This document shows positions 1-13,073 of a stretch of 64,000 nucleotides of DNA, piece after piece. Under the pieces are notes generated by a model. It had not been told where the DNA came from. It saw only the letters and a program-made list of their open reading frames with translations, and did no database searches. The DNA is from Promethearchaeota archaeon (GTDB lineage Archaea; Asgardarchaeota; Lokiarchaeia; Sigyniarchaeales; SOKP01): positions 27,377 to 91,376 of the forward strand of contig JAHLWS010000068.1 in NCBI GenBank assembly GCA_019057795.1, given 5' to 3'. The translations under genes were made by a program, and so were the position numbers. The stretch's first letter is position 1. Every line of letters begins with the position of its first letter.

Positions 1-3000
1 ATTTTAGAATACTTATCGAAGGTTTCTTTGCTGCGCTTTTCTACGCCTTCTATTTCGAAAGATACGTTTTCGCAATTAGTAAGGAAATCCGTCAATTGTT
101 CGTTAGAAAACGGAAAACCCTCTAAATTTGATATTGACGCGATAAATTTGTTGATGTCTGCGCTCGTAACCGCGTAATTAACGCTATAATAACTGTTATA
201 AGTAGCGTGAAGGAAATTTCTAAGCAAATCTTTTCCGATTTTAAGCGATTTCTCGAATTCTTCGCTATTAATAGATTGATACATTTTAAAATGTTCGTAG
301 TTTAAGATTGTAGCGAAATGTGTGGCAAAAGCGTTTTTAAGTTTTTTAGCGTTAATTTCTTGTACCTGTGAAGAACTTTCAGAATTGTAGGAATTATCGG
401 AATTATGGGACTCTATATCTAAAGGTTCGTAGGAAATTGACGCCTCTCTCTGAGCTTCGTAATAGTCTTTTAAGGCTTCGTCGTAGTGTGGTCCGACCGC
501 GAAAGAAGTTTGTAGCGATTCCGAACCGTTTGCTCTTCGAGGATGGCTCTCAATTAAGTATCGATGTTTTACCAAAATTTCGAAAGTTTTGTTTTTGATC
601 TCTTTCTCTCTCTTTTTATCTTTAGTTACCTTTAAAATGTACGGGTGAAGCCATTGCGTTAGCTCTTTCTTAACTTTTTGCTCGTACAAGTTGCCTATTT
701 GGTCTAATTTTTTTAAGTTGTTTAGAAACTTTATTATACCCTCGATTAAAACGCTATAATCTCCGAAATCCTTCTGAAATAAAGTTTTCTTTGCTAGCTG
801 TATTATTTGCTTTTCGGTATTTTTTACGTCGTACCCTTGCTTTCCCATGTTGCTTATAATTTCTTCCCAAGATAGAGGGGTGATTTCTCTAATAACTTTC
901 AAATCAAATTCGACAGGAAAAGGTTGGTAAATGTCTTCTCGTTTAACCACGGCCTCGTCTTCTTTCATGCTCGCGATGTACCTCAATTGGTAGCTTTCTT
1001 TTCTAGTGCGACTATAGTGCCCTATCCCGTGAAGCGACTCTAAGTTCATAAGAGATTTAAGCGTTGCGCTATCTCTTTTATCGGTCGCTTTAAAGGTAAC
1101 TAAGTTTTGGAAGTAATTGAACGCGTTAGAGTGTAAATACCTGATTTGAGAAGCCGAACAGATCGTCCCAAAATTATCTTGCTGAAAAGGTTCGAGAAAC
1201 TTGTCGATTATACCGTAATTAACTTTCCTATCTATGAAATCCCCGTTGAAAACCACGTCTAAGTGCGGTACAATTAAGAACTTAGGGTAATAACTTTTTC
1301 CGGTTTTTAAGTAGTGGATAAACTTAGAAAGAACTACGAAGGTAAAAAAACACTTCTTGTCGTAATTTGTAACGTCTGAAAAATCGATAATTACCGTTTT
1401 GTCTTGAGTAATTAGCTCGTAAGAGAGAATGATTCCTTGTTTGTCTAATTGTTGGCGTTGCATGAATTTTATGTCTTGTTGGGTAAATTCGCTGAAAAAC
1501 GATAGTATCGAATCGTTAACAGGGGACTTTTCCCAGTCGCTCGTAGTAGATAGGTCTAAAGTTAAAGTAGAGAGGTTTATTTCGGTATTTTTCGCTAAAG
1601 ATTTCTTGAAAGCTTCGATCGCCCTTTCGTCTTTTCTGAAGCACAACCCAAAAGCGTCGAACATATATTCCAAATAGCCCATGTTGTCGTTGTCGTAGGG
1701 GATTTCTGAAAAAAGAGGGTTGACCAGAAAAGTTTTGCCCGCTTTAAGGTACAAAAACTTATCTTCGTATATAGTTCCTTCAAAAAATCTCATTAATTTG
1801 GACCAATTGCCTGTGAAATCGAAAATAACGGAGGGATATCCCGCTTTCACGAGTTCCAAAACTATTTTTTGGCACAACGCTTCCCTACTCGAGTTAACCC
1901 CGTTGACCACTAATAAATTTCGCAATTGTTCGAGTGTAAACCCCATCGGAACTTCTTTTTCCAAGAACTCGGTGTTTATGGTGTTCCCAACCGTAATAAG
2001 GTTAGTCAAGTGTAGGGGCGTGTTAAACTCCGCGGCTATCCTCGTTTCGATCCCCTTTTTGAATTGGTCGGATATTTCAGTTATATACGTAAGAGGTTTT
2101 CCTTGAAACAACGAGTAACCCAAGTGGGTACCGTTCCTTCTGAAGAGTCTATTCTTAAAAGCTTCGAACAAGAGCCCCGATTCTAACTCGTTTTTTCTAA
2201 GTTGTTTTAACTCGAAATTAACGAAGTTTTCCTTGAAGCTTAATCGCAACACCGAGTTTTGGTGTTTTAGCTTTTGCTCCATTTCGTCGAGCACCTCGTA
2301 GTTGAAAGAAAGAGTTTTTGATACTACCGAAGTGGAATAAGTTATAACGGTGTTCCAGATACCCGAGCGAGAGTTTAACCATAGTTTTCCATCTATTTCT
2401 GATCTCGTTCTCGCTAGCAATTTTGCTTTCTCCACCTCTTTTAAGAACTTAAAACCTTCTTTTTTGAACTCGTCAAAATCTAAAGGATTAATCTCGATCG
2501 TGGCGGTAAAAGGCATTTTTTCTTTGATAAGGGCTCCATAAAAATTACTTGGAGTACAATAAGGCGGCGGATAGGTAAAATACAGGTTATTAATCTTGAT
2601 CCCCCCGATTAATTTTTCCTCGACTTGGTAAAAAATAGTCTCGGGCGCTTCCGGTACCTTGAAAAACCTAACTTTAGAAAAGGGATCGACGACCTTGATA
2701 TCGTTCGATTTGAACAACTTGTTTTTGATTAGAAAGAAAAACATTTCGCGCCACCAAATTACTATTATTGCTATAAGAATTGCAAGAATCCCTATAGATT
2801 GTATTCCTACGGGCAAGTTAAATATTAAGAGCAACCGATCCAAGCATATAACAATCGCTAAAACGTAGCTTGCTTTCAATATCGTAGGCTTTATTTTAGG
2901 TCTTATCGTTTTACAACTAATTCTTTTCGAGTCTCCTTCGATTTGTACGTCCTGTTTCAAAACTGCGATTCTATAAGCGTTTAATAATTTTTCTTCAGAA

Positions 3001-3734
3001 AACTCAACGACCTTAAAGTGGTGAAAGTTGGAAGCAAAAGCCGAAGTTAAAGAAACTGCGTATTTTCGTAGTACTTCGCCCATTGTTTCTAATTTCGATT
3101 CAGTAATTTTTCCTTTAATTTTGTAGAAGGTACTAAAGTAAAGCATCATCTCAAAAGTCGAAGATTCGGAACCATCGCTGTTGATACTTGTTTGAAGCTG
3201 TTTTTGAATTATTTGGTACGAAAACGGCACTTTAAGGGCTTGCAATCCTAAATAAACTTTGTTTAAGTTAGCGTGAACGTTTTCGGGAATTATTTTAATT
3301 CTAAAAACCCTTACTCCGGTAGTGCTGAGCTCCTTGTGATTCGTAAAAAATAAAACCGACTTGTCTTCTTTCATCTGCCAAAAAACAAAGTCTCTAAACG
3401 GATCGAAAGAACGAAAATCAAGTACATGGCGCAAGCTAAAAAATTGCTTGTGGAAGACCACAATAAAACTAATCGCTACGATCCCTGCAATAACAATCGA
3501 TAGCACTATGTTGTAAGTCGCGTAAAGCACAGATATAAAGTATAATAGCCCAATTACAACTAAGGGTATCGCTTTAAGAACCGATTCGGTCGAGTTAATG
3601 TCGTCATAAGCGGGGTTTTTATCCCATATGTCCAAATTCGCATTTTTTTTTTCCTTATCGTCATCGTCCATATCTGGTTTAAACCTATTGTTATTATATG
3701 AATCTTTCAAAAAATCTCCGTAAGCTTTTACCAT
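1..3734 (-). CDS. Large (>=1244 aa, 3'-truncated by the window edge) membrane-anchored HerA/VirB4/FtsK-like ATPase-fold protein with degenerate Walker motifs
   Basis: Not in the ORF track. I translated it by hand: ATG at 3734 (MVKAYGDFLKDS...), AGGAG RBS at 3745-3749, no stop down to base 1. It has two TM-hairpin modules followed by HerA/VirB4-like segments: ITVGNT..EVPMGFTLEQLRNLLVVNGVNSSRE..KIVLELVKAGYPSVIFDFTGNW, KTVIIDFS, KFLIVPHLD and FGTICSASQIRYLHSNAFNYFQNLVTFK. Confidence 0.8.
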   Translation of the reverse strand, partial: MVKAYGDFLKDSYNNNRFKPDMDDDDKEKKNANLDIWDKNPAYDDINSTESVLKAIPLVVIGLLYFISVLYATYNIVLSIVIAGIVAISFIVVFHKQFFSLRHVLDFRSFDPFRDFVFWQMKEDKSVLFFTNHKELSTTGVRVFRIKIIPENVHANLNKVYLGLQALKVPFSYQIIQKQLQTSINSDGSESSTFEMMLYFSTFYKIKGKITESKLETMGEVLRKYAVSLTSAFASNFHHFKVVEFSEEKLLNAYRIAVLKQDVQIEGDSKRISCKTIRPKIKPTILKASYVLAIVICLDRLLLIFNLPVGIQSIGILAILIAIIVIWWREMFFFLIKNKLFKSNDIKVVDPFSKVRFFKVPEAPETIFYQVEEKLIGGIKINNLYFTYPPPYCTPSNFYGALIKEKMPFTATIEINPLDFDEFKKEGFKFLKEVEKAKLLARTRSEIDGKLWLNSRSGIWNTVITYSTSVVSKTLSFNYEVLDEMEQKLKHQNSVLRLSFKENFVNFELKQLRKNELESGLLFEAFKNRLFRRNGTHLGYSLFQGKPLTYITEISDQFKKGIETRIAAEFNTPLHLTNLITVGNTINTEFLEKEVPMGFTLEQLRNLLVVNGVNSSREALCQKIVLELVKAGYPSVIFDFTGNWSKLMRFFEGTIYEDKFLYLKAGKTFLVNPLFSEIPYDNDNMGYLEYMFDAFGLCFRKDERAIEAFKKSLAKNTEINLSTLTLDLSTTSDWEKSPVNDSILSFFSEFTQQDIKFMQRQQLDKQGIILSYELITQDKTVIIDFSDVTNYDKKCFFTFVVLSKFIHYLKTGKSYYPKFLIVPHLDVVFNGDFIDRKVNYGIIDKFLEPFQQDNFGTICSASQIRYLHSNAFNYFQNLVTFKATDKRDSATLKSLMNLESLHGIGHYSRTRKESYQLRYIASMKEDEAVVKREDIYQPFPVEFDLKVIREITPLSWEEIISNMGKQGYDVKNTEKQIIQLAKKTLFQKDFGDYSVLIEGIIKFLNNLKKLDQIGNLYEQKVKKELTQWLHPYILKVTKDKKREKEIKNKTFEILVKHRYLIESHPRRANGSESLQTSFAVGPHYDEALKDYYEAQREASISYEPLDIESHNSDNSYNSESSSQVQEINAKKLKNAFATHFATILNYEHFKMYQSINSEEFEKSLKIGKDLLRNFLHATYNSYYSVNYAVTSADINKFIASISNLEGFPFSNEQLTDFLTNCENVSFEIEGVEKRSKETFDKYSK

Positions 3735-3795
3735 TTTTTATTTTCTCCTTTTCTTTTCATTTTTTTTATATCCTTTAATTTTTTTTTACTTTCCT

Positions 3796-4656
3796 CTACT
3801 TTCTTTTATTACTAAAATAAGTTTTATTTACGAAATAAAGCACAATAATGGCCCCAAAACAGACGAGCAAGTTGTAGCTAATGACAACCGACAAGAACCC
3901 GTACATTAGTGCCTCAATTAAAGAAATACTCCCGACCATGGCAAATAAAATTATAATTCCGATAACTAAAAATTGCCCGACCTGTTCCTTCGATTGCGTG
4001 TAAGAAATGTTATCTTTTAGCGAGCCCGAAATAACGATTTTTCTGCTTTTTTTCTTCTCGATGCTTTTTCTAATGGTTTTGAGTTGTATAATTTTCTCAA
4101 ACGAATTCTTATCGAACTGGTCTTTGAGCTTGTATTGAAGCGCTTCTTCTTCTTCTCTAAATTTTTGAAGCAATATTGGATTAAATTTGCTTTCGTCTCT
4201 GTTTTTTCCACTTTGACCGCCTGACAAAAAAGAAAGCAAAGAAATCGTGCGATTTTTTTCGACTACTTCTGGGTTAACGCTGTCGTGTAAGTTGGGAACG
4301 TCCAACTTGCGAAGCTCGTAATAAACCTCAAATATCTCCTTAGCGTATTCAAAGCGAAGTTCTCCTTCCTTTTTTAAGAACAAAAGCTCTACTCTCTTTA
4401 ACACGTCGATTAATTCCGGTCTAAACACGTGAACGCTGAAATTTACCCCAAAAACCTTGTTTACGAGCTCCATGTATTCGAATATTTTCTCTCCCGCGCT
4501 TTTTTCCCTCGAGCGCATTCCTAGCTTGATTCCGATCTCGTCGACTGCGTTGCTCGTAAGCACAAAACTTACTACCGCTATCTTTTTATGGTTGTGAGTT
4601 TCTTTACAGAGCTGGATCAACCGCTTGAGCTTTAAATCTAACAACTGTTCCTTCAT
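3796..4656 (-). CDS. Hypothetical protein, helical N-terminal domain plus 2 C-terminal TM helices
   Basis: 286-aa ORF with two hydrophobic stretches at the C-terminus and a basic tail; 4 bp from the upstream gene. Confidence 0.75.
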   Translation of the reverse strand: MKEQLLDLKLKRLIQLCKETHNHKKIAVVSFVLTSNAVDEIGIKLGMRSREKSAGEKIFEYMELVNKVFGVNFSVHVFRPELIDVLKRVELLFLKKEGELRFEYAKEIFEVYYELRKLDVPNLHDSVNPEVVEKNRTISLLSFLSGGQSGKNRDESKFNPILLQKFREEEEALQYKLKDQFDKNSFEKIIQLKTIRKSIEKKKSRKIVISGSLKDNISYTQSKEQVGQFLVIGIIILFAMVGSISLIEALMYGFLSVVISYNLLVCFGAIIVLYFVNKTYFSNKRK

Positions 4657-4660
4657 TCTC

Positions 4661-5395
4661 TTACGTTCGCCCCCGAATCTTTTGTGCTTCTCTTTTAGAC
4701 GTTGGAGATTCTTTCAAGGACTCGCTTGCAGATTCAAGCTTAAATTCTTCTTGTGATATCAACTTGTCCCAATCCAATTCTTCTCGAACGCTTTCAACGT
4801 GCCGTTTTATCTTATTTTCTGCGCTAGATTCCTCTTTTTCGAAGGTATTAATTACTGAATGATTGAATATTGCAAAAGGAAAAGTGCAAGCAAACGAGAT
4901 TAGTTGGAGAAAATATCCAGGACCGATCGAATAGTAAAAAATAACTCCTAAATCGTAATCGTAATACGCTAAGAAAGGGTAGTACAAACCGTTCGGGAGC
5001 AAGAAAAACAACGGGTATATTAAAACGAAGAATCCAATCAATGTTACCAAAGATAAGTTGACGAACCCGAATTTTTTTAATCTAAGTAGGTTATCTTTGC
5101 GTTCCGCATCGACAAATAATACTGAATATGCGGACAAAAAAATAACTATTAAGAAAGCGATAACAATGCCAACAGGTAAAGAAGCGTTTTTAGGTTCGTA
5201 AAAATCGTTAATGACGGCGCCTTGAGAAAACGTGGTGCTCCAATCGAACAGCGCGTTGTAAACCCAATAAACTACTATTTCACCGGAATCGCTTACTCCT
5301 TGAAAGTAATACCAATCCAAAAAGACCGAAGCAAACCCGAGCATCAGACCAACAATAAAAACAATTTTATATCCTGATTTAAAATTTATCGTCAT
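4661..5395 (-). CDS. Hypothetical 4-TM membrane protein with a charged C-terminal tail
   Basis: 244-aa ORF with four hydrophobic segments. Confidence 0.75.
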   Translation of the reverse strand: MTINFKSGYKIVFIVGLMLGFASVFLDWYYFQGVSDSGEIVVYWVYNALFDWSTTFSQGAVINDFYEPKNASLPVGIVIAFLIVIFLSAYSVLFVDAERKDNLLRLKKFGFVNLSLVTLIGFFVLIYPLFFLLPNGLYYPFLAYYDYDLGVIFYYSIGPGYFLQLISFACTFPFAIFNHSVINTFEKEESSAENKIKRHVESVREELDWDKLISQEEFKLESASESLKESPTSKREAQKIRGRT

Positions 5396-5517
5396 ATTAA
5401 CTTAGACTCTATTAATTTTTACTAGTAGAACTAAAAAGAAGTATGGTTTTATAAAGAAAAAATTAAAGATTTTATGGAAATTTGTTTTATAGTTTTGCAA
5501 AAAAATGTTGTAGATTG

Positions 5518-7530
5518 TTAATCGTCAAAAAACGAGCTGTATTTTACTTCGCTTTTAGGTTTTTCTTTTATAGAACTATTTCTTGGTTCCGGATCTAATT
5601 CGTATAGTTGAGGGGCGTCTCTCTCTTGTTGTTTTGCTACTAAGTTTTCTTTAATGTTATCTTTTTCGATTTGTTCTAACACCTCAGAATCTTTGTCTTT
5701 TCCAAAACACTCGTAGCCAAATTGAGCCATCTGTTCGCCTGTGAACTCTTCTTTAACGCACAACAAATCGGTTTCGCTAAACTGCGCGTTCTGTAAATAA
5801 TAAGGGGTTTCAAATTTGGATGTTAAATCTTTTTTGGTTTTGTAAAACTTAAAGTAGAAGTACGCTATCGTGAAAAAGTAGATCCCTATGGCAGCGAACC
5901 CGATGCTGTTGAAAAGTCTCAGAAGGAAGTACAGCTGCGAAAAATAGATAACAAGCAGTACTACAGAATATCCGAGGAATGGAAGCGAAGCCATCTTTAG
6001 ACTCGAACGAAACTTAGTGTCTGCGTTTTGGTATATCTCGATCGAATTAGTTTTTTTAGCTCGAGACTCGATTAGTTTGTACTTTTTTTCCAAAAATCGT
6101 AGTAGAGTGGCGATGTTAGGCCAATCGATAACGTGTAGATTTGTTTTTCTCTGGTATGGGAACAAAACTGATTTCTCCATGCATTTCGCGGGAATTTTAG
6201 TTAGTAAGATGGGTTCGATTAAAATTTTGTACTGAGTTTGGCCTGAGACAAAATATAGTTTCTTGCTTCTTGCGCTTTTTTCAGCCGTAAATTTTACTTG
6301 CAAGTATTTTTGAAAGAATTCTTGAAAATTATCGCCGTTAACAACGTCTTCAAACACAGCGTCTTTAGCTTTTAAAAGGTCGATTGCGTAGTTGCGCACT
6401 TTAAGTAACGAGTCAGATTCTTGAGCCTTCGAGTGAGGCTTGTAGTCTATTTTCTCTTCGTGTATTAATATCCTTCCTTCTAAGTCGCAGAACTTGATTG
6501 GTACGAGAATTATAAGCTTCGAGTTGTCGTTAACGCTTACGAGCTTGCAACCCACATAATCGACATCTTGGAAAAACGGTCTTAGAGCTTCGATTCCGTT
6601 TGGAATTGAGTAATATCCTATGTCTTTTAACGATTCGGCGATCTCGCTTGTAAGATCTTCTCGGCGATTTAATATCCTTGAACTCGTTGAAGCTTCTGAA
6701 ATCTCTGGAATATTTGTATCTACTAAAACTTCTGGAATATTTGTATCTTCTGAAATCTCAGGAATTTTAGTAACTTCAGGAAACTCGGTATAAGTTGGAG
6801 TAACAACGTATTCTTCTCGAGGAACCTCTTCTTTTGGTAAGGGCGCTTCGCTCTCGAAGGGTTCTACGGTTGCGTTGTTTTCAAATTGTTCTGGAATTTC
6901 TTCTTGGTATTCTTCGATTTCTTCTTCCTCTTCTTCTTCGACTTCTCTTTGGAACTTTTCCTGTGGGAGTTCCTCCTCAACAAATACTTCGGCAACTTCG
7001 AAGGTTTCAATATTATCAACTTCGGTTTCAGCTTCAATTTCTTCCAGTTCAAGAATTGCGGTTTCAATTTTAACGTCTGGTCGCGCAAGCAATTGCTTGT
7101 AGGGCGTAGCATTTCTTAGTTGAATGCCTTCCTTACGCTCGAAATCCTCTCCAACTTCAATCTCAGCGATTTCGTTAGTTTTAAGCTCTTCCAACATGGC
7201 ATCTTCCTGAATTTTTTGAACTATAACGGGTTCTTCTTTCGAATGTTCGGGTATTTTGACTTTATTACCTTCCTTTATTCCTTCTAAAAGCTTTTTCGCT
7301 TCTTCAATAAATTTTCTAGCCGTAGCTATACCAACTCCGGGAGCTTCCGATAATTTCTCGGGAGTTATTTCTGCAAGCTGTCGATAGGTGTAGATTTTCC
7401 TAACATTTAGCTTCTCGGCGGTGCCCGAGCCAATACCTTTGATTTTTGTGAGGTCGTTGGTAGTTTGAGACAACGCAATCGTTTTTTCTTCGGGAAGTTC
7501 AACATTTATCTTTTCGTATACATCTGTCAT
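5518..7530 (-). CDS. Helix-hairpin-helix (HhH) DNA-binding protein with acidic linker, globular domain and 2 TM helices
   Basis: Tandem HhH motifs (DLTKIKGIGSGTAEKL...LSEAPGVGIATARKF), a Glu-rich linker with short TNIPE repeats, and a TM pair near the C-terminus. Confidence 0.75.
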   Translation of the reverse strand: MTDVYEKINVELPEEKTIALSQTTNDLTKIKGIGSGTAEKLNVRKIYTYRQLAEITPEKLSEAPGVGIATARKFIEEAKKLLEGIKEGNKVKIPEHSKEEPVIVQKIQEDAMLEELKTNEIAEIEVGEDFERKEGIQLRNATPYKQLLARPDVKIETAILELEEIEAETEVDNIETFEVAEVFVEEELPQEKFQREVEEEEEEEIEEYQEEIPEQFENNATVEPFESEAPLPKEEVPREEYVVTPTYTEFPEVTKIPEISEDTNIPEVLVDTNIPEISEASTSSRILNRREDLTSEIAESLKDIGYYSIPNGIEALRPFFQDVDYVGCKLVSVNDNSKLIILVPIKFCDLEGRILIHEEKIDYKPHSKAQESDSLLKVRNYAIDLLKAKDAVFEDVVNGDNFQEFFQKYLQVKFTAEKSARSKKLYFVSGQTQYKILIEPILLTKIPAKCMEKSVLFPYQRKTNLHVIDWPNIATLLRFLEKKYKLIESRAKKTNSIEIYQNADTKFRSSLKMASLPFLGYSVVLLVIYFSQLYFLLRLFNSIGFAAIGIYFFTIAYFYFKFYKTKKDLTSKFETPYYLQNAQFSETDLLCVKEEFTGEQMAQFGYECFGKDKDSEVLEQIEKDNIKENLVAKQQERDAPQLYELDPEPRNSSIKEKPKSEVKYSSFFDD

Positions 7531-8011
7531 AGGGATCTAATTTTAAGATATATTCCCATATTTAAAGAAAAAAAAATATCTTCCCAATCTATTAGATTCC
7601 TTAAATGTTAAATCACCGAGGAAATAAAGAATATCTTTTGGTCTTATACTTTCTTCTATGTTTTGTAGAATAGTTTTATTTATATCTCAATATTCTTAAA
7701 TGGGCGATTACAATATTTTAATATATTTTTGTGTGATAAATGAAAATCCGCTGTAAAGAAAATCAATATAATTCACATTTTTTAGGAAAATATTAATTTT
7801 GAGATGGAAATTTTAAATTCATTATATCTGCTTTCTCTACATTTCTGATATTTTTTGCTTTAAGATAATTTTAAATAAAACCTTTTTTATCATAATTTTA
7901 ACAAAAAATAGATCAAAAATTTGTCATATTTTTTTGAAAAAAAATGATAACAAAAGAAGTGTGCGAGAAAACTTTATATTAAAACATGTTTTAAAAAGGA
8001 AGTAAAAAAAA

Positions 8012-9802
8012 ATGAAAAAAAAAGTAATGGTTTTAGCGGGAATTATAGTATTAAGTATGTTCTTATTTGTTAAACCTATAATAGACGAAAATAAAGAATC
8101 CTCGCCAAGAAATGCGGGGTATTGGAATATAGATCGTATATTTATCAATGGCAACGATGACTGGGAAGCACTTGCTAATACTTATGATTGGTGTAGTGGT
8201 TCTGGTGCAATTGATGACCCTTATATTATCGAGAATGTTACGGTTAATGATGATATTTCAATTGGAGGCTCAAGTGTTTACTTTGTAATTAGAAATAGTT
8301 CAGTTAATCGTGGTATTTCAATTAGAGACTCAAGTGTTTACTTTGTAATTAGAAATTGTTCAGTTTACGAGGGAGGATATTACGGTAAGGGAATCGAGTT
8401 AAATAATGTAACTAATTCGATGATTTTTAATAATACAGCTTATAACAATTATTATGGAATATATTTAACGGATAGCAATAATAACACACTCTTAGACAAT
8501 ACAGCTTATAACAATGATTTTGGAATATATTTAACGGATAGCAATAATAACACACTCTTAGACAATACAGCTTATAACAATTATTATGGAATATATGTAG
8601 CCTATAGTAGTATCAACATGATTTCGGGAAATACTGCAAATGACAATAAATATTCAGGAATACATTTATATTATAGCTACAATAACACGGTTTGGGATAA
8701 TACCGTAAATTTCAACGATTATACTGCAGGAATATGTTTAGATTATAGCTACAATAACACGGTTCGGGATAATACCGTAAATTTCAATGTTAATATTGGA
8801 ATATTTTTATCTGATAGTTACAATAATACAATTGAACTGAATAATGTTAAAAATAATTATGGTGATGGTATAAGTTTATGGGAAAGTAATAATAACGATA
8901 TCTTGAGAAATGAAGTAAATGATAATGATAGATATGGAATATATTTATTCGGATATATGGGGATTAGTAATAATAATAATGTCTCAGAGAACACTGTAAA
9001 TTCCAACGATGGATTGGCAGGGATTTATTTACATGATGCCCATTATAATATAATTTCAGGAAACACCGCAAATGACAATAGTGGTGATGGGATACAATTA
9101 TCTTACAGTGATTATAATACCATTTTGGGAAATACAATTATGGACAATAACGAATATGGGGTATTTGGTCATTACAGCGAAAATAATCTTATTTATAATA
9201 ATATATTTATTGGGAACATATTTGGGAATGCCGTAGACGACTCTTTTAATATTAACTATTGGGATAATGGAACTCTTGGAAATTATTGGGCAGACTATGA
9301 GGGTTTTGATAATAATGGCGATGGAATAGGCGATACTCCTTATTCCATAGGTGGAATAGCGGGAGCGATAGATAATTATCCAATATGGGATATACCAAAG
9401 CCAGATCCCGAATTTCCAACATCATTCACACTTACTTCTAATGCTGATACTCCCGATACAGATGGTATCTTTACATTATATTGGACAAATTCCGAATACG
9501 CAAATAACTATTCTCTTTACCAGAACGATGTTTTATTGGTTAGTGGATTAACAGGGCTTTATTGTTCAATGAAAATCTATTCAAATGGTAGTTATAGCTT
9601 TAAAGTAATAGCTTTTAATAACTATGGATATACGAGTTCAAATGAAATAATTGTTGACATAGAGATACCAGTAGAACCAGAGACAACACCAGATTTGATA
9701 CCAAGCTTTAACCCATTAATAATTGTTGGATTAATTGTTGGAATATCTAGCATATTGGCTATTGGAATTAAGAAAAGAATGTTATTGCGAACTGAATTGT
9801 AA
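8012..9802 (+). CDS. Secreted right-handed parallel beta-helix (NosD/CASH-like) surface protein with an FN3-like domain and a C-terminal sorting/TM anchor (Loki-CTERM-like)
   Basis: N-terminal signal, GSG..DPYIIEN motif, many GIYL..S.NN....N repeats, GNYW.DY...D.NGDGIGD.PY, and C-terminal IPSFNPLIIVGLI..KKR. Confidence 0.85.
   Translation: MKKKVMVLAGIIVLSMFLFVKPIIDENKESSPRNAGYWNIDRIFINGNDDWEALANTYDWCSGSGAIDDPYIIENVTVNDDISIGGSSVYFVIRNSSVNRGISIRDSSVYFVIRNCSVYEGGYYGKGIELNNVTNSMIFNNTAYNNYYGIYLTDSNNNTLLDNTAYNNDFGIYLTDSNNNTLLDNTAYNNYYGIYVAYSSINMISGNTANDNKYSGIHLYYSYNNTVWDNTVNFNDYTAGICLDYSYNNTVRDNTVNFNVNIGIFLSDSYNNTIELNNVKNNYGDGISLWESNNNDILRNEVNDNDRYGIYLFGYMGISNNNNVSENTVNSNDGLAGIYLHDAHYNIISGNTANDNSGDGIQLSYSDYNTILGNTIMDNNEYGVFGHYSENNLIYNNIFIGNIFGNAVDDSFNINYWDNGTLGNYWADYEGFDNNGDGIGDTPYSIGGIAGAIDNYPIWDIPKPDPEFPTSFTLTSNADTPDTDGIFTLYWTNSEYANNYSLYQNDVLLVSGLTGLYCSMKIYSNGSYSFKVIAFNNYGYTSSNEIIVDIEIPVEPETTPDLIPSFNPLIIVGLIVGISSILAIGIKKRMLLRTEL
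8243..8790 (+). repeat. Near-identical in-frame intragenic tandem duplications (periods 60, 66 and 72 bp)
   Basis: 60-bp copies start at 8243 and 8303; 66-bp copies at 8432, 8498 and 8564; 72-bp copies at 8670 and 8742. Confidence 0.9.
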
Positions 9803-10207
9803 ATTTAAATTTTTATTTATTATTTTTTTTCGTTTCTTAAATTTAATATCTTTCCTAATTTGTACTCTTTTCATCTTAAGACAATATTTAAGACAATTTT
9901 GGCAATAATAGGTTGTATTTGCCAAACAATAAAAACCAATCTCAATTGTAGCCATACAATCCCTAAATTATAACAACACTCACTAATAAAATTAAATTGG
10001 TTTTTTTATTTATATACTTTAAGCTGTTTTGGGTAGTATGGTCCTTGTCGAATTACTTTACATACCATCTAGACTAGACTTTTTTTCCCCTAATGGGTTT
10101 TTTCGCCTTTTTTCATATTTCATACTCGTTTTTAACAAATAGGTAGGTAAATCGGCAAGTACTTTTCTTTTTTTTTTCTTTATATTTGAAGGCAATTAAC
10201 TCTTTAC

Positions 10208-10537
10208 ATGGAAAGTAAAAGCACAAGTAGAAATAGAAATTTTGAAAGGAAAATAAGCGAGTTGTTAAAGCAAAACGCGAAAAACCTCCATACTTGCCCG
10301 TTGTGCGGAGAGAGGATCGAGATCGGGATCGAAAAAGGAGTTTTATCTGAGATTTCGAAGGACGGTAATTACCCGTTCCCTCACATTCACCTACACGGAA
10401 GCCCTCTTCACGCTATGATCTGCTACGTGGACACGCACTTTGTCGTTCGAGGGGTAGGGAGCGTTCGCAGTATCGAGATTTCCCGAGACTCAGACACTTT
10501 ACAGCAGTTCGTGAAAAAATGGTCGAACGCGTATTAA
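10208..10537 (+). CDS. Small Zn-binding hypothetical protein (CxxC plus HxHxH)
   Basis: CPLCG...YPFPHIHLHGSPLHAMICYVD; co-oriented with and adjacent to the helicase. Confidence 0.7.
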   Translation: MESKSTSRNRNFERKISELLKQNAKNLHTCPLCGERIEIGIEKGVLSEISKDGNYPFPHIHLHGSPLHAMICYVDTHFVVRGVGSVRSIEISRDSDTLQQFVKKWSNAY

Positions 10538-10550
10538 TTGGTGATAAAAG

Positions 10551-13073
10551 ATTTCTTTAACTAACTTTACAAGCGCTCCAAAGGATAAGAAAGACCTAAA
10601 AGACGAGGAGATCTTTAGGTATATACAGGACGAAAGAATACTTCGAGTTTTGTTCGAGCTAAAGATATTTAACTTGCGAGAAATTCAGAAAGAAGCGATT
10701 CAGAGAGGGTTATTTTTTCGCAAGTCCTTTTTAGTGTGTGCTCCCTCTGGAAGCGGTAAGACCTTAATAGGAGAAGTGTGTGCTGTTAACAACGTGTTTC
10801 AAAAGTTCGGTAAATCCATATATCTCGTGCCGTATAAAGCTTTAGCCACCGAGAAATACGTTCACTTTAAAAAAAGCTACAAGCGTTTTGGGGTTAAAAC
10901 CGAGCTGTCCATCGGCGATTACGACGTGGATGACGACAAGTTAGAACAAGCGGACATAGTGGTAACCACGTACGAAAAAATGGATTCAATTCTAAGAAAT
11001 TTTTACGACAAAGAATGGATTTTCGATATATCTACCATAATTATAGACGAAATACACATAGTCGGTGAGTCCGATCGTGGCCCTCGTTTAGAATCTCTAA
11101 TAGTAAGATTGAACGAGTTTTTACACAACCCGCAAATTATAGGGCTTTCGGCAACCATCGCGAACCCCGAATTTTTTAACGATTGGCTCACATCTTTAGG
11201 AAACCAAACTACTCTTATCATCTCGGACGACCGACCTGTGCCTCTCCACTATAGAATTGAAGTGACTCAGAACAAAGATTCTACCCTTAAGAAAATAATT
11301 AAGGCCACTCTAAACGATGGCGGTCAAGCGTTGATTTTTCTAAACAGAAGAAAATCGACTCAAATGACGGCTCAAAACTTAAAAAACTTAGTTAAAGCGC
11401 TCATCTCCGAAAAAGAGCTGAAAGCGTGCAAAAAAATAGGCGACAAACTCAACAAAATTAAAGGAAGGCACAGCGAGTTAAAGAAAGTAGTAAAATGTGG
11501 GGTTGCGTTCCATCACGCGGGATTGCTTCCCAAAGAAAGAAAGTTCGTCGAGGACGCTTATCGGAAACACGCCTTAAAAGTTATCTGCTGTACCACTACA
11601 TTAAGTGCGGGCATAAACGTCCCTGCTCGAGTAGTGGTATTAAAAGACTTCAAAAAATACGTCACTTCAGGGCACAACATAAAGAATTTTAAAGGATTTT
11701 ACGAAAACGGAGACGGATTTTCTTACTTTAAAGCGTTTTCCGCTAACGAGGTGTTTCAGATGCTTGGTCGCGCAGGTAGACCCGGTTTAGACGAAGTTGG
11801 GTACGGTATCGTGCTAGTAAAGGGTGTTGAGGAGCGGGATTGGGTAGAAGATCACTACTTTCAAAATTCTTTTCCGTCTAAAACTTATTTACCGAAATAC
11901 AACGATTTGGTTTCTGGGTTAAACAGAATAAACACCTTAAAAGAGCAAGTTCTACTGCGCGTGTACGAAGAGAAGCGCATAACGCTCGAAAAATTAAAAG
12001 AATTCTTTCAGAAAACTTACTTTTGGTACGGCGTAAAAAACAAGATGAAAACACAAGACATTCCCATCGACCAAATCCTAATGATTAAAGAAATCACTCC
12101 GAAAAACATTTTAAAGCTTCATTCCGACCCTCAAAAAGTAAAAAAACTGACTAACAACCACCATCAAATAAAAATTACTAAGCTTAACAGTTCAACGATT
12201 TCGGGTTATATCAAGACCGATTTTGGCGTGTTTCTTTGCGAGTTCGACGTGGACCTCGGTATCAGGTGCTCTTGTGGTTTTGAAAACGGTATATCCGATA
12301 ACTACGCAAACGACCAGTTTTCCTTCGAGTTTTGCGACCACATCACCGCCTTTTTGCTTCATCTAATAGAAATACCGGACAAGAACTTCCAAAAATACGT
12401 GAACGACATTGTACCAAAATCCGTTAAGAACCAATACATCCTCAATTATCTCTTCGAGAAAGGATTGATTTTAAAGCGCGAGGATGGTACTATTAAATGC
12501 TCGCAGTTTGGTAAGCTTATAATTCGGCTTTACCTATACCCCGTCTCTGGAGTGTTGATAAGGTACAAGCTGGAAAAAGTCGAAATAGAGACTGTTAAAG
12601 ACGTCGTAAAAGCAGCTTACGAAGTTCTGAAAGCAGAAGGGAGAACGAGGAACTACAAGTTGCTCCAACCGGTATTAGAGTGGTGCGACGAGGAACCGTT
12701 AGACGATATTTTAGAAAGACACAAAATTATGGCGGGCGACCTTTACAGTACCAGAGACAACCTCGAGAGGATTATTACTTTTATAGGAATTATTGCTATG
12801 CACTTGGCTGAGTCCGACTTCGACTTGCAAGACAAGTTGATAAACATAACCGAGATGGCGGAAACGCTAAGAATTAGGATGCATTACGGAATAAGAGAGG
12901 AATTGTTCGACTTAGTGCTAAGGTTAGACAACGTGGCGAGGGTTCGAGCGCGGATGTTGTATAACGCGGGTTATCACACGGTAGCGCAGGTCAGGAAAGA
13001 AAACCCCTACGTATTAAATCGAAAAACCGGGTTAGGGATTAACCTGTGTAAAAAAATAATTGGAAAAAATTGA
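10551..13073 (+). CDS. hel308: Ski2-like (Hel308-type) DExH helicase with an inserted SWIM zinc finger and C-terminal HhH
   Basis: APSGSGKT, DEIH, LSAT, FHHAGL and QMLGRAGRPGLD motifs; CSC-x21-CDH SWIM; C-terminal RVRARMLYNAGY. The frame is open from 10548; the start is proposed at ATT 10551 after GGTGAT (ORF track gives TTG 10650). Confidence 0.85.
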   Translation: MSLTNFTSAPKDKKDLKDEEIFRYIQDERILRVLFELKIFNLREIQKEAIQRGLFFRKSFLVCAPSGSGKTLIGEVCAVNNVFQKFGKSIYLVPYKALATEKYVHFKKSYKRFGVKTELSIGDYDVDDDKLEQADIVVTTYEKMDSILRNFYDKEWIFDISTIIIDEIHIVGESDRGPRLESLIVRLNEFLHNPQIIGLSATIANPEFFNDWLTSLGNQTTLIISDDRPVPLHYRIEVTQNKDSTLKKIIKATLNDGGQALIFLNRRKSTQMTAQNLKNLVKALISEKELKACKKIGDKLNKIKGRHSELKKVVKCGVAFHHAGLLPKERKFVEDAYRKHALKVICCTTTLSAGINVPARVVVLKDFKKYVTSGHNIKNFKGFYENGDGFSYFKAFSANEVFQMLGRAGRPGLDEVGYGIVLVKGVEERDWVEDHYFQNSFPSKTYLPKYNDLVSGLNRINTLKEQVLLRVYEEKRITLEKLKEFFQKTYFWYGVKNKMKTQDIPIDQILMIKEITPKNILKLHSDPQKVKKLTNNHHQIKITKLNSSTISGYIKTDFGVFLCEFDVDLGIRCSCGFENGISDNYANDQFSFEFCDHITAFLLHLIEIPDKNFQKYVNDIVPKSVKNQYILNYLFEKGLILKREDGTIKCSQFGKLIIRLYLYPVSGVLIRYKLEKVEIETVKDVVKAAYEVLKAEGRTRNYKLLQPVLEWCDEEPLDDILERHKIMAGDLYSTRDNLERIITFIGIIAMHLAESDFDLQDKLINITEMAETLRIRMHYGIREELFDLVLRLDNVARVRARMLYNAGYHTVAQVRKENPYVLNRKTGLGINLCKKIIGKN

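Follow-up and report, generated by a model that had tools for sequence, protein, structure and literature searches.

A five-gene membrane cluster of Asgard archaea with a VirB4/HerA-fold protein lacking canonical ATPase motifs and a linked Hel308-type helicase

The locus described here occupies the left end of a 64,000-nucleotide (nt) stretch of an Asgard archaeal genome (Promethearchaeota archaeon GCA_019057795.1, a 4.95-Mb assembly; contig C68, accession JAHLWS010000068.1), which we refer to as the window and which corresponds to C68:27377-91376. Positions 1-7530 carry four co-oriented minus-strand open reading frames (ORFs), every product of which is a membrane protein. A preceding sequence-only reading had described this run as a four-gene cluster whose members all have transmembrane (TM) helices; the ORF list and hydropathy agree with it on the four genes, and it is the size of the unit that has to be revised. 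A fifth gene, encoding the soluble, co-oriented protein P0006 of 299 amino acids (aa), begins immediately left of the window, its start overlapping the stop of P0005. The P0005 ORF itself extends 51 nt beyond the left edge, so that its last 16 codons and stop lie outside, and the intergenic gaps from P0001 to P0005 are 122, 4 and 61 nt. The genes treated below, including a nearby helicase gene, are as follows:

5518..7530, minus strand: P0001, 670 aa, HhH membrane protein (ORF)
4661..5395, minus strand: P0002, 244 aa, 4-TM protein (hydropathy, 16-member alignment)
3796..4656, minus strand: P0003, 286 aa, helical cytoplasmic domain plus C-terminal TM hairpin (hydropathy, 16-member alignment)
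1..3734 and left flank, minus strand: P0005, 1260 aa, membrane-anchored VirB4/HerA-fold protein without canonical ATPase motifs
10650..13073, plus strand: Hel308-type superfamily 2 (SF2) helicase, 807 aa (Pfam DEAD, Helicase_C, Helicase_dom4_arc)

We tentatively favor a reading, held with less than even confidence, in which the cluster would encode a membrane-embedded complex that, with the Hel308-type helicase, handles DNA on the cytoplasmic side of the membrane.

The large protein and its membrane partners

At least 134 proteins make up the P0005 family; their length is very uniform (about 1230-1300 aa), and all derive from Asgard metagenome-assembled genomes and are annotated as hypothetical. 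No cultured strain was recognized among the 80 best loci. P0005 matches no Pfam or NCBIfam family at E<=1, the VirB4 signatures CagE_TrbE_VirB, TraC_F_IV and AAA_10 included; 10 remote representatives gave no VirB4 signature either, and phmmer and a full-length family profile retrieved nothing for P0005 from the PDB sequences. An AlphaFold2 (AF2) model of residues 45-1244, built with 93 homologues (mean predicted local confidence, pLDDT, 82.8), has as its top Foldseek match in the PDB the full-length TrwK/VirB4 of plasmid R388 (E 3e-15, about 980 aligned columns), followed in order by HerA, DndH-C, the VirB4 C-terminal domain and TrwB. VIA-align scores are 25-26 against full-length TrwK (model 52-67..924 on chain 6-15..806), 24.1 against the VirB4 C-terminal domain (4ag5; root-mean-square deviation 3.8 A, 328 residues), and 24.7, 23.9, 21 and 14.2 against DndH-C, HerA, TrwB and FtsK, respectively. 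By sequence, a profile built from the large proteins' RecA-like and winged-helix parts together with small Asgard relatives (profile A5) reaches HerA (8j4u, E 6e-7; 8xau, E 3.5e-4), the only solved proteins reached by a sequence profile. Structure and sequence thus both support the placement of P0005 in the FtsK/HerA/VirB4 clade, with a RecA-like core of that fold, and the HerA/VirB4 assignment made in the sequence-only reading holds on both counts. Because the N-terminal region aligns too, VirB4 is the best overall template for the P0005 model, in which a two-part N-terminal domain and a C-terminal ATPase domain can both be superposed.

From the N-terminus, the parts of P0005 run in the order TM hairpin 1, module 1, TM hairpin 2, module 2, RecA-like domain, winged helix and helical bundle:

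3432..3590, minus strand: TM hairpin 1 (hydropathy, residues 49-101; model helices H4-29 and H32-50)
2949..3422, minus strand: alpha/beta module 1 (model)
2724..2885, minus strand: TM hairpin 2 (hydropathy, residues 284-337; model helices H237-261 and H265-283)
2148..2702, minus strand: alpha/beta module 2 (model, hhalign)
828..2045, minus strand: RecA-like (ex-ATPase) domain (VIA matches, model residues about 520-925; A5 versus HerA)
1875..1919, minus strand: deviant P-loop, NLLVVNGVNSSREAL, replacing GxxGxGK[ST] (between model strand E562-566 and helix H570-586)
1248..1283, minus strand: Walker B position, KFLIVPHLDVVF (alignment with small relatives)
495..683, minus strand: winged-helix domain (model helices H974-1012 plus hairpin E1016-1036)
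1..350, minus strand: C-terminal helical bundle (model helices H1085-1199; no match)

Modules 1 and 2 fall within the span aligned to the TrwK N-terminal domain, and hhalign shows homology between the two hairpin-plus-module units (probability 98.5, E 2e-15, 213 columns). Outside this taxonomic family, the protein occurs in a split form, in which module 1 with its hairpin is a separate 282-294-aa gene followed by a 512-533-aa gene for the RecA-like domain plus winged helix-turn-helix (wHTH), and in another form as a single ~785-aa protein with one module. The winged-helix region of the small relatives matches HTH_24, PadR and MarR.

The sequence motifs at the ATP site justify reading P0005 as a pseudo-ATPase that would lack the usual ATP hydrolysis, as the sequence-only reading had also proposed. 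The Walker A position reads NGVNSSRE (NGxxxSRE in the family) where GxxGxGK[ST] is expected, with the lysine replaced, and the Walker B strand reads FLIVPH, with Pro-His instead of the Asp-Glu of the hhhhD[DE] pattern. N611, G612 and P823 are invariant in alignments of 31 and of 93 sequences, R617 is invariant in the former and at least 90% conserved in the latter, R911 and R932 are invariant, and 49 columns in all are invariant over the 93 homologues. An A5 search over 1.84 billion representative proteins yielded 1748 relatives at E<=1e-3; none of the best 143 of these has a canonical Walker A, and their consensus is hhhh[NG]G[TS]xxxR. The small Asgard relatives, unlike the large form, retain Walker B acids (LLLDE, IDD or LDD). 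As the large protein is strongly conserved despite the lost ATP site, we take it to be functional rather than decaying.

The first gene, P0001, belongs to a family with at least 139 members of about 560-760 aa, and the HhH domain PF14520 is present in nearly every one:

7291..7455, minus strand: HhH_5 domain, residues 26-80 (Pfam PF14520)
6661..7248, minus strand: acidic linker, residues 95-290 (composition, family alignment)
6016..6660, minus strand: conserved alpha/beta domain (AF2 model m97f529fd2bd0, pLDDT about 85-92 there)
5851..6003, minus strand: TM helical hairpin (hydropathy, residues 510-560; model helices H212-246 and H250-290)
5521..5850, minus strand: cytoplasmic C-terminal tail (family alignments)

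The HhH match is well above threshold (PF14520, E 9e-11, 42.5 bits against a gathering cut-off of 27; PF00633, E 3e-6), is conserved in the family alignment, and has as its closest NCBIfam matches the N-terminal HhH of RadA. It sits on a 196-aa linker with 60 Asp plus Glu against 17 Lys plus Arg, which aligns poorly and differs in length among homologues, in agreement with the long acidic tether noted in the sequence-only reading. That reading also placed the HhH end in the cytoplasm, an orientation that we consider probable. The alpha/beta domain has no Foldseek match in the PDB at E<=1e-3, and a wide VIA search matched the helical hairpin only; the tail keeps the motifs TPYYxQ and QFGYEC and a terminal KYxSFLED-like peptide throughout the family.

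Of the small partners, P0002 has a Trp-rich outer loop and an acidic cytoplasmic tail with the motif LDxDKLIxEEE, and its residues W28, W52, N63 and P68 are invariant in the 16-member alignment. Pfam, NCBIfam and PDB-profile searches gave no match for P0002 or for P0003, and the ESM Atlas gave no usable match for P0003. Among P0001-P0003 and P0006, the same three kinds of search returned no VirB2-, VirB3-, VirB6- or VirB8-type, coupling-protein or relaxase match, with the limit that the folds were not all modelled and remote homology is possible; the ORF list contains no small protein with a signal peptide within the cluster.

Conservation, paralogous loci and flanking genes

Conservation of gene order was assessed over 22 loci: this locus, a further locus on contig C32 of the same assembly, and 20 homologue loci from other genomes of the same taxonomic family. 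The order P0001-P0002-P0003-P0005 is kept in 16 of the 22, at protein identities of 20-90%, and recurs down to ~30% identity of the large protein, so the synteny check across Lokiarchaeia-type genomes that had been suggested from the sequence came out in favor of a real unit. A P0006 homologue follows the cluster in 15 loci.

The C32 locus (L004, C32:30001-42563) is a second full copy of helicase plus five-gene cluster. The two copies share 84% nucleotide identity over the first 600 bases of the window, within the P0005 gene; at the protein level the helicases are 94% identical and the cluster proteins 55-87%. As contamination of the assembly is estimated at 7.5%, the two copies may reflect a co-binned sister strain rather than a duplication.

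P0006 gave nothing significant in Pfam or NCBIfam, and a PDB-profile search of its family gave no match; its homologues share a helical core of ~115 aa. In 5 of the 15 homologues, this locus included (RNIFQH), the core is accompanied by a C-terminal domain bearing the HEPN-type RNxxxH motif. The C-terminal half of P0006 itself matches HEPN weakly (DUF4145, E 0.08; Atlas HEPN clusters at 0.84-0.85, under the guide value of 0.9). One homologue has an NYN RNase in place of this domain (Pfam E 2e-10), and one member of the large-protein family carries a fused NYN (E 2e-15). Such RNase domains raise the possibility of a defense or conflict system, in which a membrane-bound HerA-like sensor would recognize foreign DNA through its HhH and wHTH domains and act through RNase or other effectors, with the helicase in the role of HamB in Hachiman. 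Several other features could be accommodated by this explanation: the existence of up to three paralogous systems per genome with differing partner sets, the faster divergence of the cluster proteins relative to the helicase between the C68 and C32 copies, the appearance among the structural matches of HerA-type rings, which form the cores of Sir2-HerA and DUF4297-HerA systems, and the candidate defense cassette and low-GC insert that flank the cluster (see below). We nevertheless consider it unlikely. The remaining 10 of the 15 fifth-gene homologues have no nuclease domain, no PADLOC model matches any of the five cluster proteins, the chromosomal position and gene order are fixed across genera, unlike typical defense islands, and the linkage to a RadA paralog and XPD described below is not a known defense pattern. 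The HamB matches of the helicase extend over the generic SF2 core only, and a HamA-like gene is absent.

The six remaining loci of the sample hold large-protein paralogues with other partner sets, and up to three diverging paralogous systems occur per genome. In type-2 paralogue loci (L038, L039 and L040; relatives G171 and G008), the partners are a 171-186-aa Cdc48-N-only protein (CDC48_N, E 4e-14), a TPR protein and a 4-5-TM protein. These partners, along with the abundance of TM hairpins in all partners of the module, would fit a role in protein handling, with the complex acting as a dislocase or as an assembly platform for membrane or surface proteins and with the HhH and wHTH domains being regulatory or protein-binding; VirB4, likewise, is thought to act on pilin subunits. 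We regard this role as quite improbable: the ATP motor is dead and no substitute protein unfoldase is conserved in the type-1 loci, the only ATPase partner conserved across the phylum is a DNA helicase, and nearly all of ~120 P0001 homologues keep their HhH domain.

Two paralogous loci (L046:10916-12862 and L036:481-2553) encode, directly downstream of the ATP-dead protein, a 648-690-aa DUF87/HerA-like protein whose Walker A (GLTGVGKT) and Walker B motifs are intact. Four homologues of that protein occur in the present genome (contigs C53, C78, C82 and C84), none of them near the cluster, and hhalign gave no significant match between the large-protein family and one intact DUF87 ATPase, P0399. 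Very large ORFs (1081-1599 aa) adjoin the module in three lineages (L028:1-4391, L027:14283-17528 and L046:12894-17693); two of them bear N-terminal signal or TM sequences, and these neighbors may be surface components.

The sequence-only reading had also suggested that an active ATPase partner may lie beyond the left edge of the window, which the genes there do not support. Among seven ORFs scanned over ~12 kb to the left (233- and 214-aa ORFs lay outside the scan), no intact HerA/VirB4, relaxase or integrase was present; the ORFs scanned encode a small helical or HEPN-like protein, an SDH protease, a UDG-fold protein, a weak PD-(D/E)xK match, ThiF and GNAT. The SDH/ClpP-like serine protease (PF01972, E 4e-22), the UDG-superfamily protein (E 9e-10) and the weak PD-(D/E)xK protein fall within L003:8404-11172 (C68:23404-26172), between P0006 and the ThiF/GNAT genes, which come directly after the cluster in four related loci. 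This stretch looks like an inserted cassette, possibly with a role in defense, and because its three genes never co-occur with the cluster, we do not count them as part of it. On the other side, a low-GC insert at window positions 7531-10200 (0.28, versus 0.37-0.41 in the flanks) separates P0001 from the helicase; it contains a gene (8012-9802) for a NosD/beta-helix protein with a signal peptide and C-terminal TM anchor, and is present neither in the C32 locus nor in the other type-1 loci. A 109-aa ORF with a CxxC motif (10208-10537) is likewise assigned to the insert.

The linked helicase and the possible role of the complex

The helicase scores 403, 348 and 317 bits against the NCBIfam models for archaeal ATP-dependent DNA helicase and Hel308, far below their cut-offs of 887-1216 and short of equivalog assignment, for which reason we call it Hel308-type. 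It is encoded divergently from P0001 in 14 of 16 type-1 loci. This divergent helicase may be dedicated to the module. At residue 540 it carries a SWIM-like motif, CSC-x21-CDH. Candidate HamB and DinG assignments from PADLOC were set aside for the helicases of these loci, as the matches cover generic cores only.

The A5 profile was used to screen 201 sampled Asgard genomes, 85 of them of high quality. The VirB4-like family is present in 92 of the 201 (48 of the 85), and in at least 57 of those 92 a Hel308-type helicase lies on the same contig at most 10 kb away, spanning seven Asgard families and three arrangements; in the rest, the genes mostly sit on short contigs. Counted as linked genomes per family, the distribution is:

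f1: 19 of 31 genomes, divergent
f7: 29 of 33 genomes, helicase directly downstream on the same strand
f19: 5 of 6 genomes
f12: 1 of 4 genomes
f26: 1 of 1 genome, helicase directly downstream on the same strand with a 4-nt overlap
f15: 1 of 1 genome
f9: 1 of 1 genome

With three arrangements over seven families, inherited synteny alone is an unlikely explanation for this linkage.

In families f7 and f26 (L074-L082 and L028), the module is embedded in one tight operon of about 11 genes, in the order two unknown genes, RadA paralog, two unknown genes, XPD/Rad3-like helicase, TM-hairpin protein, small protein, VirB4-like protein, Hel308-type helicase and TM-hairpin protein. The RadA paralog matches Rad51 at E 1e-52 and includes HhH_5, and five families of the operon have no Pfam or PADLOC match. 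Two or three RadA-like genes occur in these genomes, and those of f7 also have two Hel308-like genes, which makes the operon copies paralogs. In the genome studied here, XPD lies on contig C82 and RadA-like genes on C36, C69 and C32, none of them near the cluster. Homology between the C-terminal half of P0001 and the TM-hairpin protein encoded after the helicase in the operons of f7, f19 and f26 was not supported (hhalign probability 0.5). RadA paralog clades in Asgard archaea have been noted previously, the f7/f26 operon not (PMC12722695), and a survey of Ski2/Hel308 helicases contains no genomic-context analysis (PMC10946056). The sequence-only reading had connected the cluster to DNA, and the helicase tie across Asgard families, joined in some lineages by the RadA paralog and XPD-like helicase, strengthens that connection.

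The arrangement that we tentatively propose, with the reservations given below, is a membrane-anchored ATP-dead ring with HhH arms, serving as a dock or conduit that would hold DNA or present it to the helicase. P0005 would be held in the membrane by its two TM hairpins and, by analogy with its relatives, might form a ring; because its motifs speak against the usual ATP hydrolysis, we picture it as a dock or conduit rather than a motor. Judging from their domain families, the winged helix of P0005 and the HhH domains of P0001 on their acidic tethers could hold the DNA, and P0002, P0003 and P0006, which are co-inherited with them, might complete the membrane assembly. The energy step would come from the Hel308-type helicase, a single-strand DNA translocase, as the conserved gene linkage suggests. 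The purpose, most likely, would be to feed DNA acquired or exchanged across the envelope, or else broken chromosomal DNA, into recombination. Ring formation, DNA binding, contact with the helicase and DNA movement are all steps that we infer.

Several observations weigh against this proposal. No homologue of a VirB6/CedA channel, VirB2/CedA1 pilin, VirB8 or relaxase is recognized among the cluster proteins, and the sole polytopic partner, P0002, has 4 TM segments and no detectable similarity to known families (CedA and TedA have 6-7). The predicted topology is nearly all cytoplasmic, with only a 36-aa loop of P0002 outside. The Cdc48-N-only and TPR partners of the paralogues point to protein rather than DNA clients, and some systems carry HEPN-like or NYN RNase domains. 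Within f1, unrelated neighbors (ThiF, GNAT) are syntenic as well, and since the helicase is apparently the only close Hel308-type gene of this genome, the adjacency in that family is possibly inherited housekeeping synteny.

The topology is fitted better by an intracellular tether or scaffold, which would move no DNA across the membrane and would instead fasten chromosomal DNA to it, whether at stalled forks, at broken ends or during segregation; the dead ring and the HhH arms would be the clamps, and Hel308 would be brought in to repair the DNA or restart the fork. In favor of such a tether are the predicted cytoplasmic location of every soluble domain, the lost ATPase motifs and the absence of any conserved channel, pilin or surface component from the f1 loci, and linkage to Hel308, RadA and XPD suits repair. 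Against it, the proteins closest in structure are transfer machines that span the envelope, other lineages have very large proteins with signal or TM sequences next to the module (1463 aa in L028, 1081 aa in L027), and as many as three diverging paralogous systems per genome are more than a tether would call for; on balance we find this explanation somewhat doubtful. A more ambitious form of the dock-or-conduit proposal, also rather doubtful at present, is a helicase-driven DNA translocon of the Asgard archaea's own, in which a non-hydrolyzing ring derived from a type IV secretion system (T4SS) would act as the conduit, the Hel308-type helicase would pull, and the RadA paralog and XPD would recombine the incoming DNA. 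If true, such a translocon would be a candidate prokaryotic forerunner of eukaryotic partnerships between HELQ and RAD51 paralogs.

Asgard archaea are, of all known prokaryotes, those most closely related to eukaryotes, and to our knowledge essentially nothing is known of their DNA exchange, uptake and repair. The module is tied to recombination enzymes whose eukaryotic relatives (HELQ/POLQ, RAD51 paralogs and XPD) are central to genome maintenance. If DNA is indeed handled at the membrane, the module would be the third archaeal branch from the T4SS lineage, Ced and Ted being the other two, would divide the work in a new way between a dead ring and a helicase motor, and would offer a concrete way to approach gene flow and recombination in the lineage ancestral to eukaryotes. 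Should it instead be a tether or a defense system, the superfamily would still gain a new functional type in the form of a conserved ATP-dead VirB4/HerA ring.

Comparison with known systems

A literature search turned up no account of a VirB4-like system in Asgard archaea, nor of this module or operon, and the nearest points of comparison are members of the same clade. VirB4 (TrwK of R388 and VirB4 of Thermoanaerobacter pseudethanolicus; 7o41, 7o42, 7o43, 8rtb, 8rtd and 4ag5) is an inner-membrane T4SS ATPase and shares its membrane association with P0005, whose N-terminal TM hairpin is presumably positioned like VirB3 in known VirB3-VirB4 fusions. Unlike VirB4, P0005 has neither the Walker A lysine nor the Walker B acids, nor a Pfam VirB4/TraC/AAA_10 signature; a second TM hairpin separates its two duplicated N-terminal modules; and a winged helix and helical bundle are added at its C-terminus. 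It also differs in that no VirB2, VirB3, VirB6, VirB8 or VirD4 partner or relaxase is recognized, and in that its family is chromosomal, passes on by vertical inheritance and is confined to Asgard archaea.

Ced, from Sulfolobales, and Ted, from Thermoproteales (CedB/CedD/TedB with CedA/TedA and CedA1/TedC) are likewise chromosomal archaeal systems of the VirB4/HerA clade with small 2-TM proteins. Both are VirB4-based DNA importers, and Ted loci also hold recombination genes, Rad50 and HerA (PMC9905601). CedB and CedD have N-terminal domains that each superpose on a different half of the one in VirB4 (PMC11868833), and the duplicated modules of P0005, as well as the one-, two- and split-module forms of the Asgard family, mirror these halves. 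The pairing of an ATP-dead protein with a live DUF87 protein in loci L046 and L036 recalls CedB and CedD, and the proposed route from envelope DNA to recombination would resemble the logic of the crenarchaeal systems. Their ATPases, however, are described as active motors, whereas P0005 lacks the motifs; the Asgard cluster has no recognized CedA/VirB6-like 6-7-TM protein or pilin, and its partners are instead an HhH membrane protein and a Hel308-type helicase.

HerA, which profile A5 reaches, is partnered in archaea with DNA-repair genes. It is soluble and catalytically active and works with NurA (HerA-NurA) or with effector proteins (the Sir2-HerA and DUF4297-HerA defense complexes), whereas P0005 is membrane-anchored, predicted to be ATP-dead and equipped with VirB4-like N-terminal modules. 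The DNA pumps FtsK and SpoIIIE, finally, have the same order of parts as P0005: N-terminal TM segments, a RecA-like domain of the same superfamily and a C-terminal winged helix, which in FtsK is the gamma domain.

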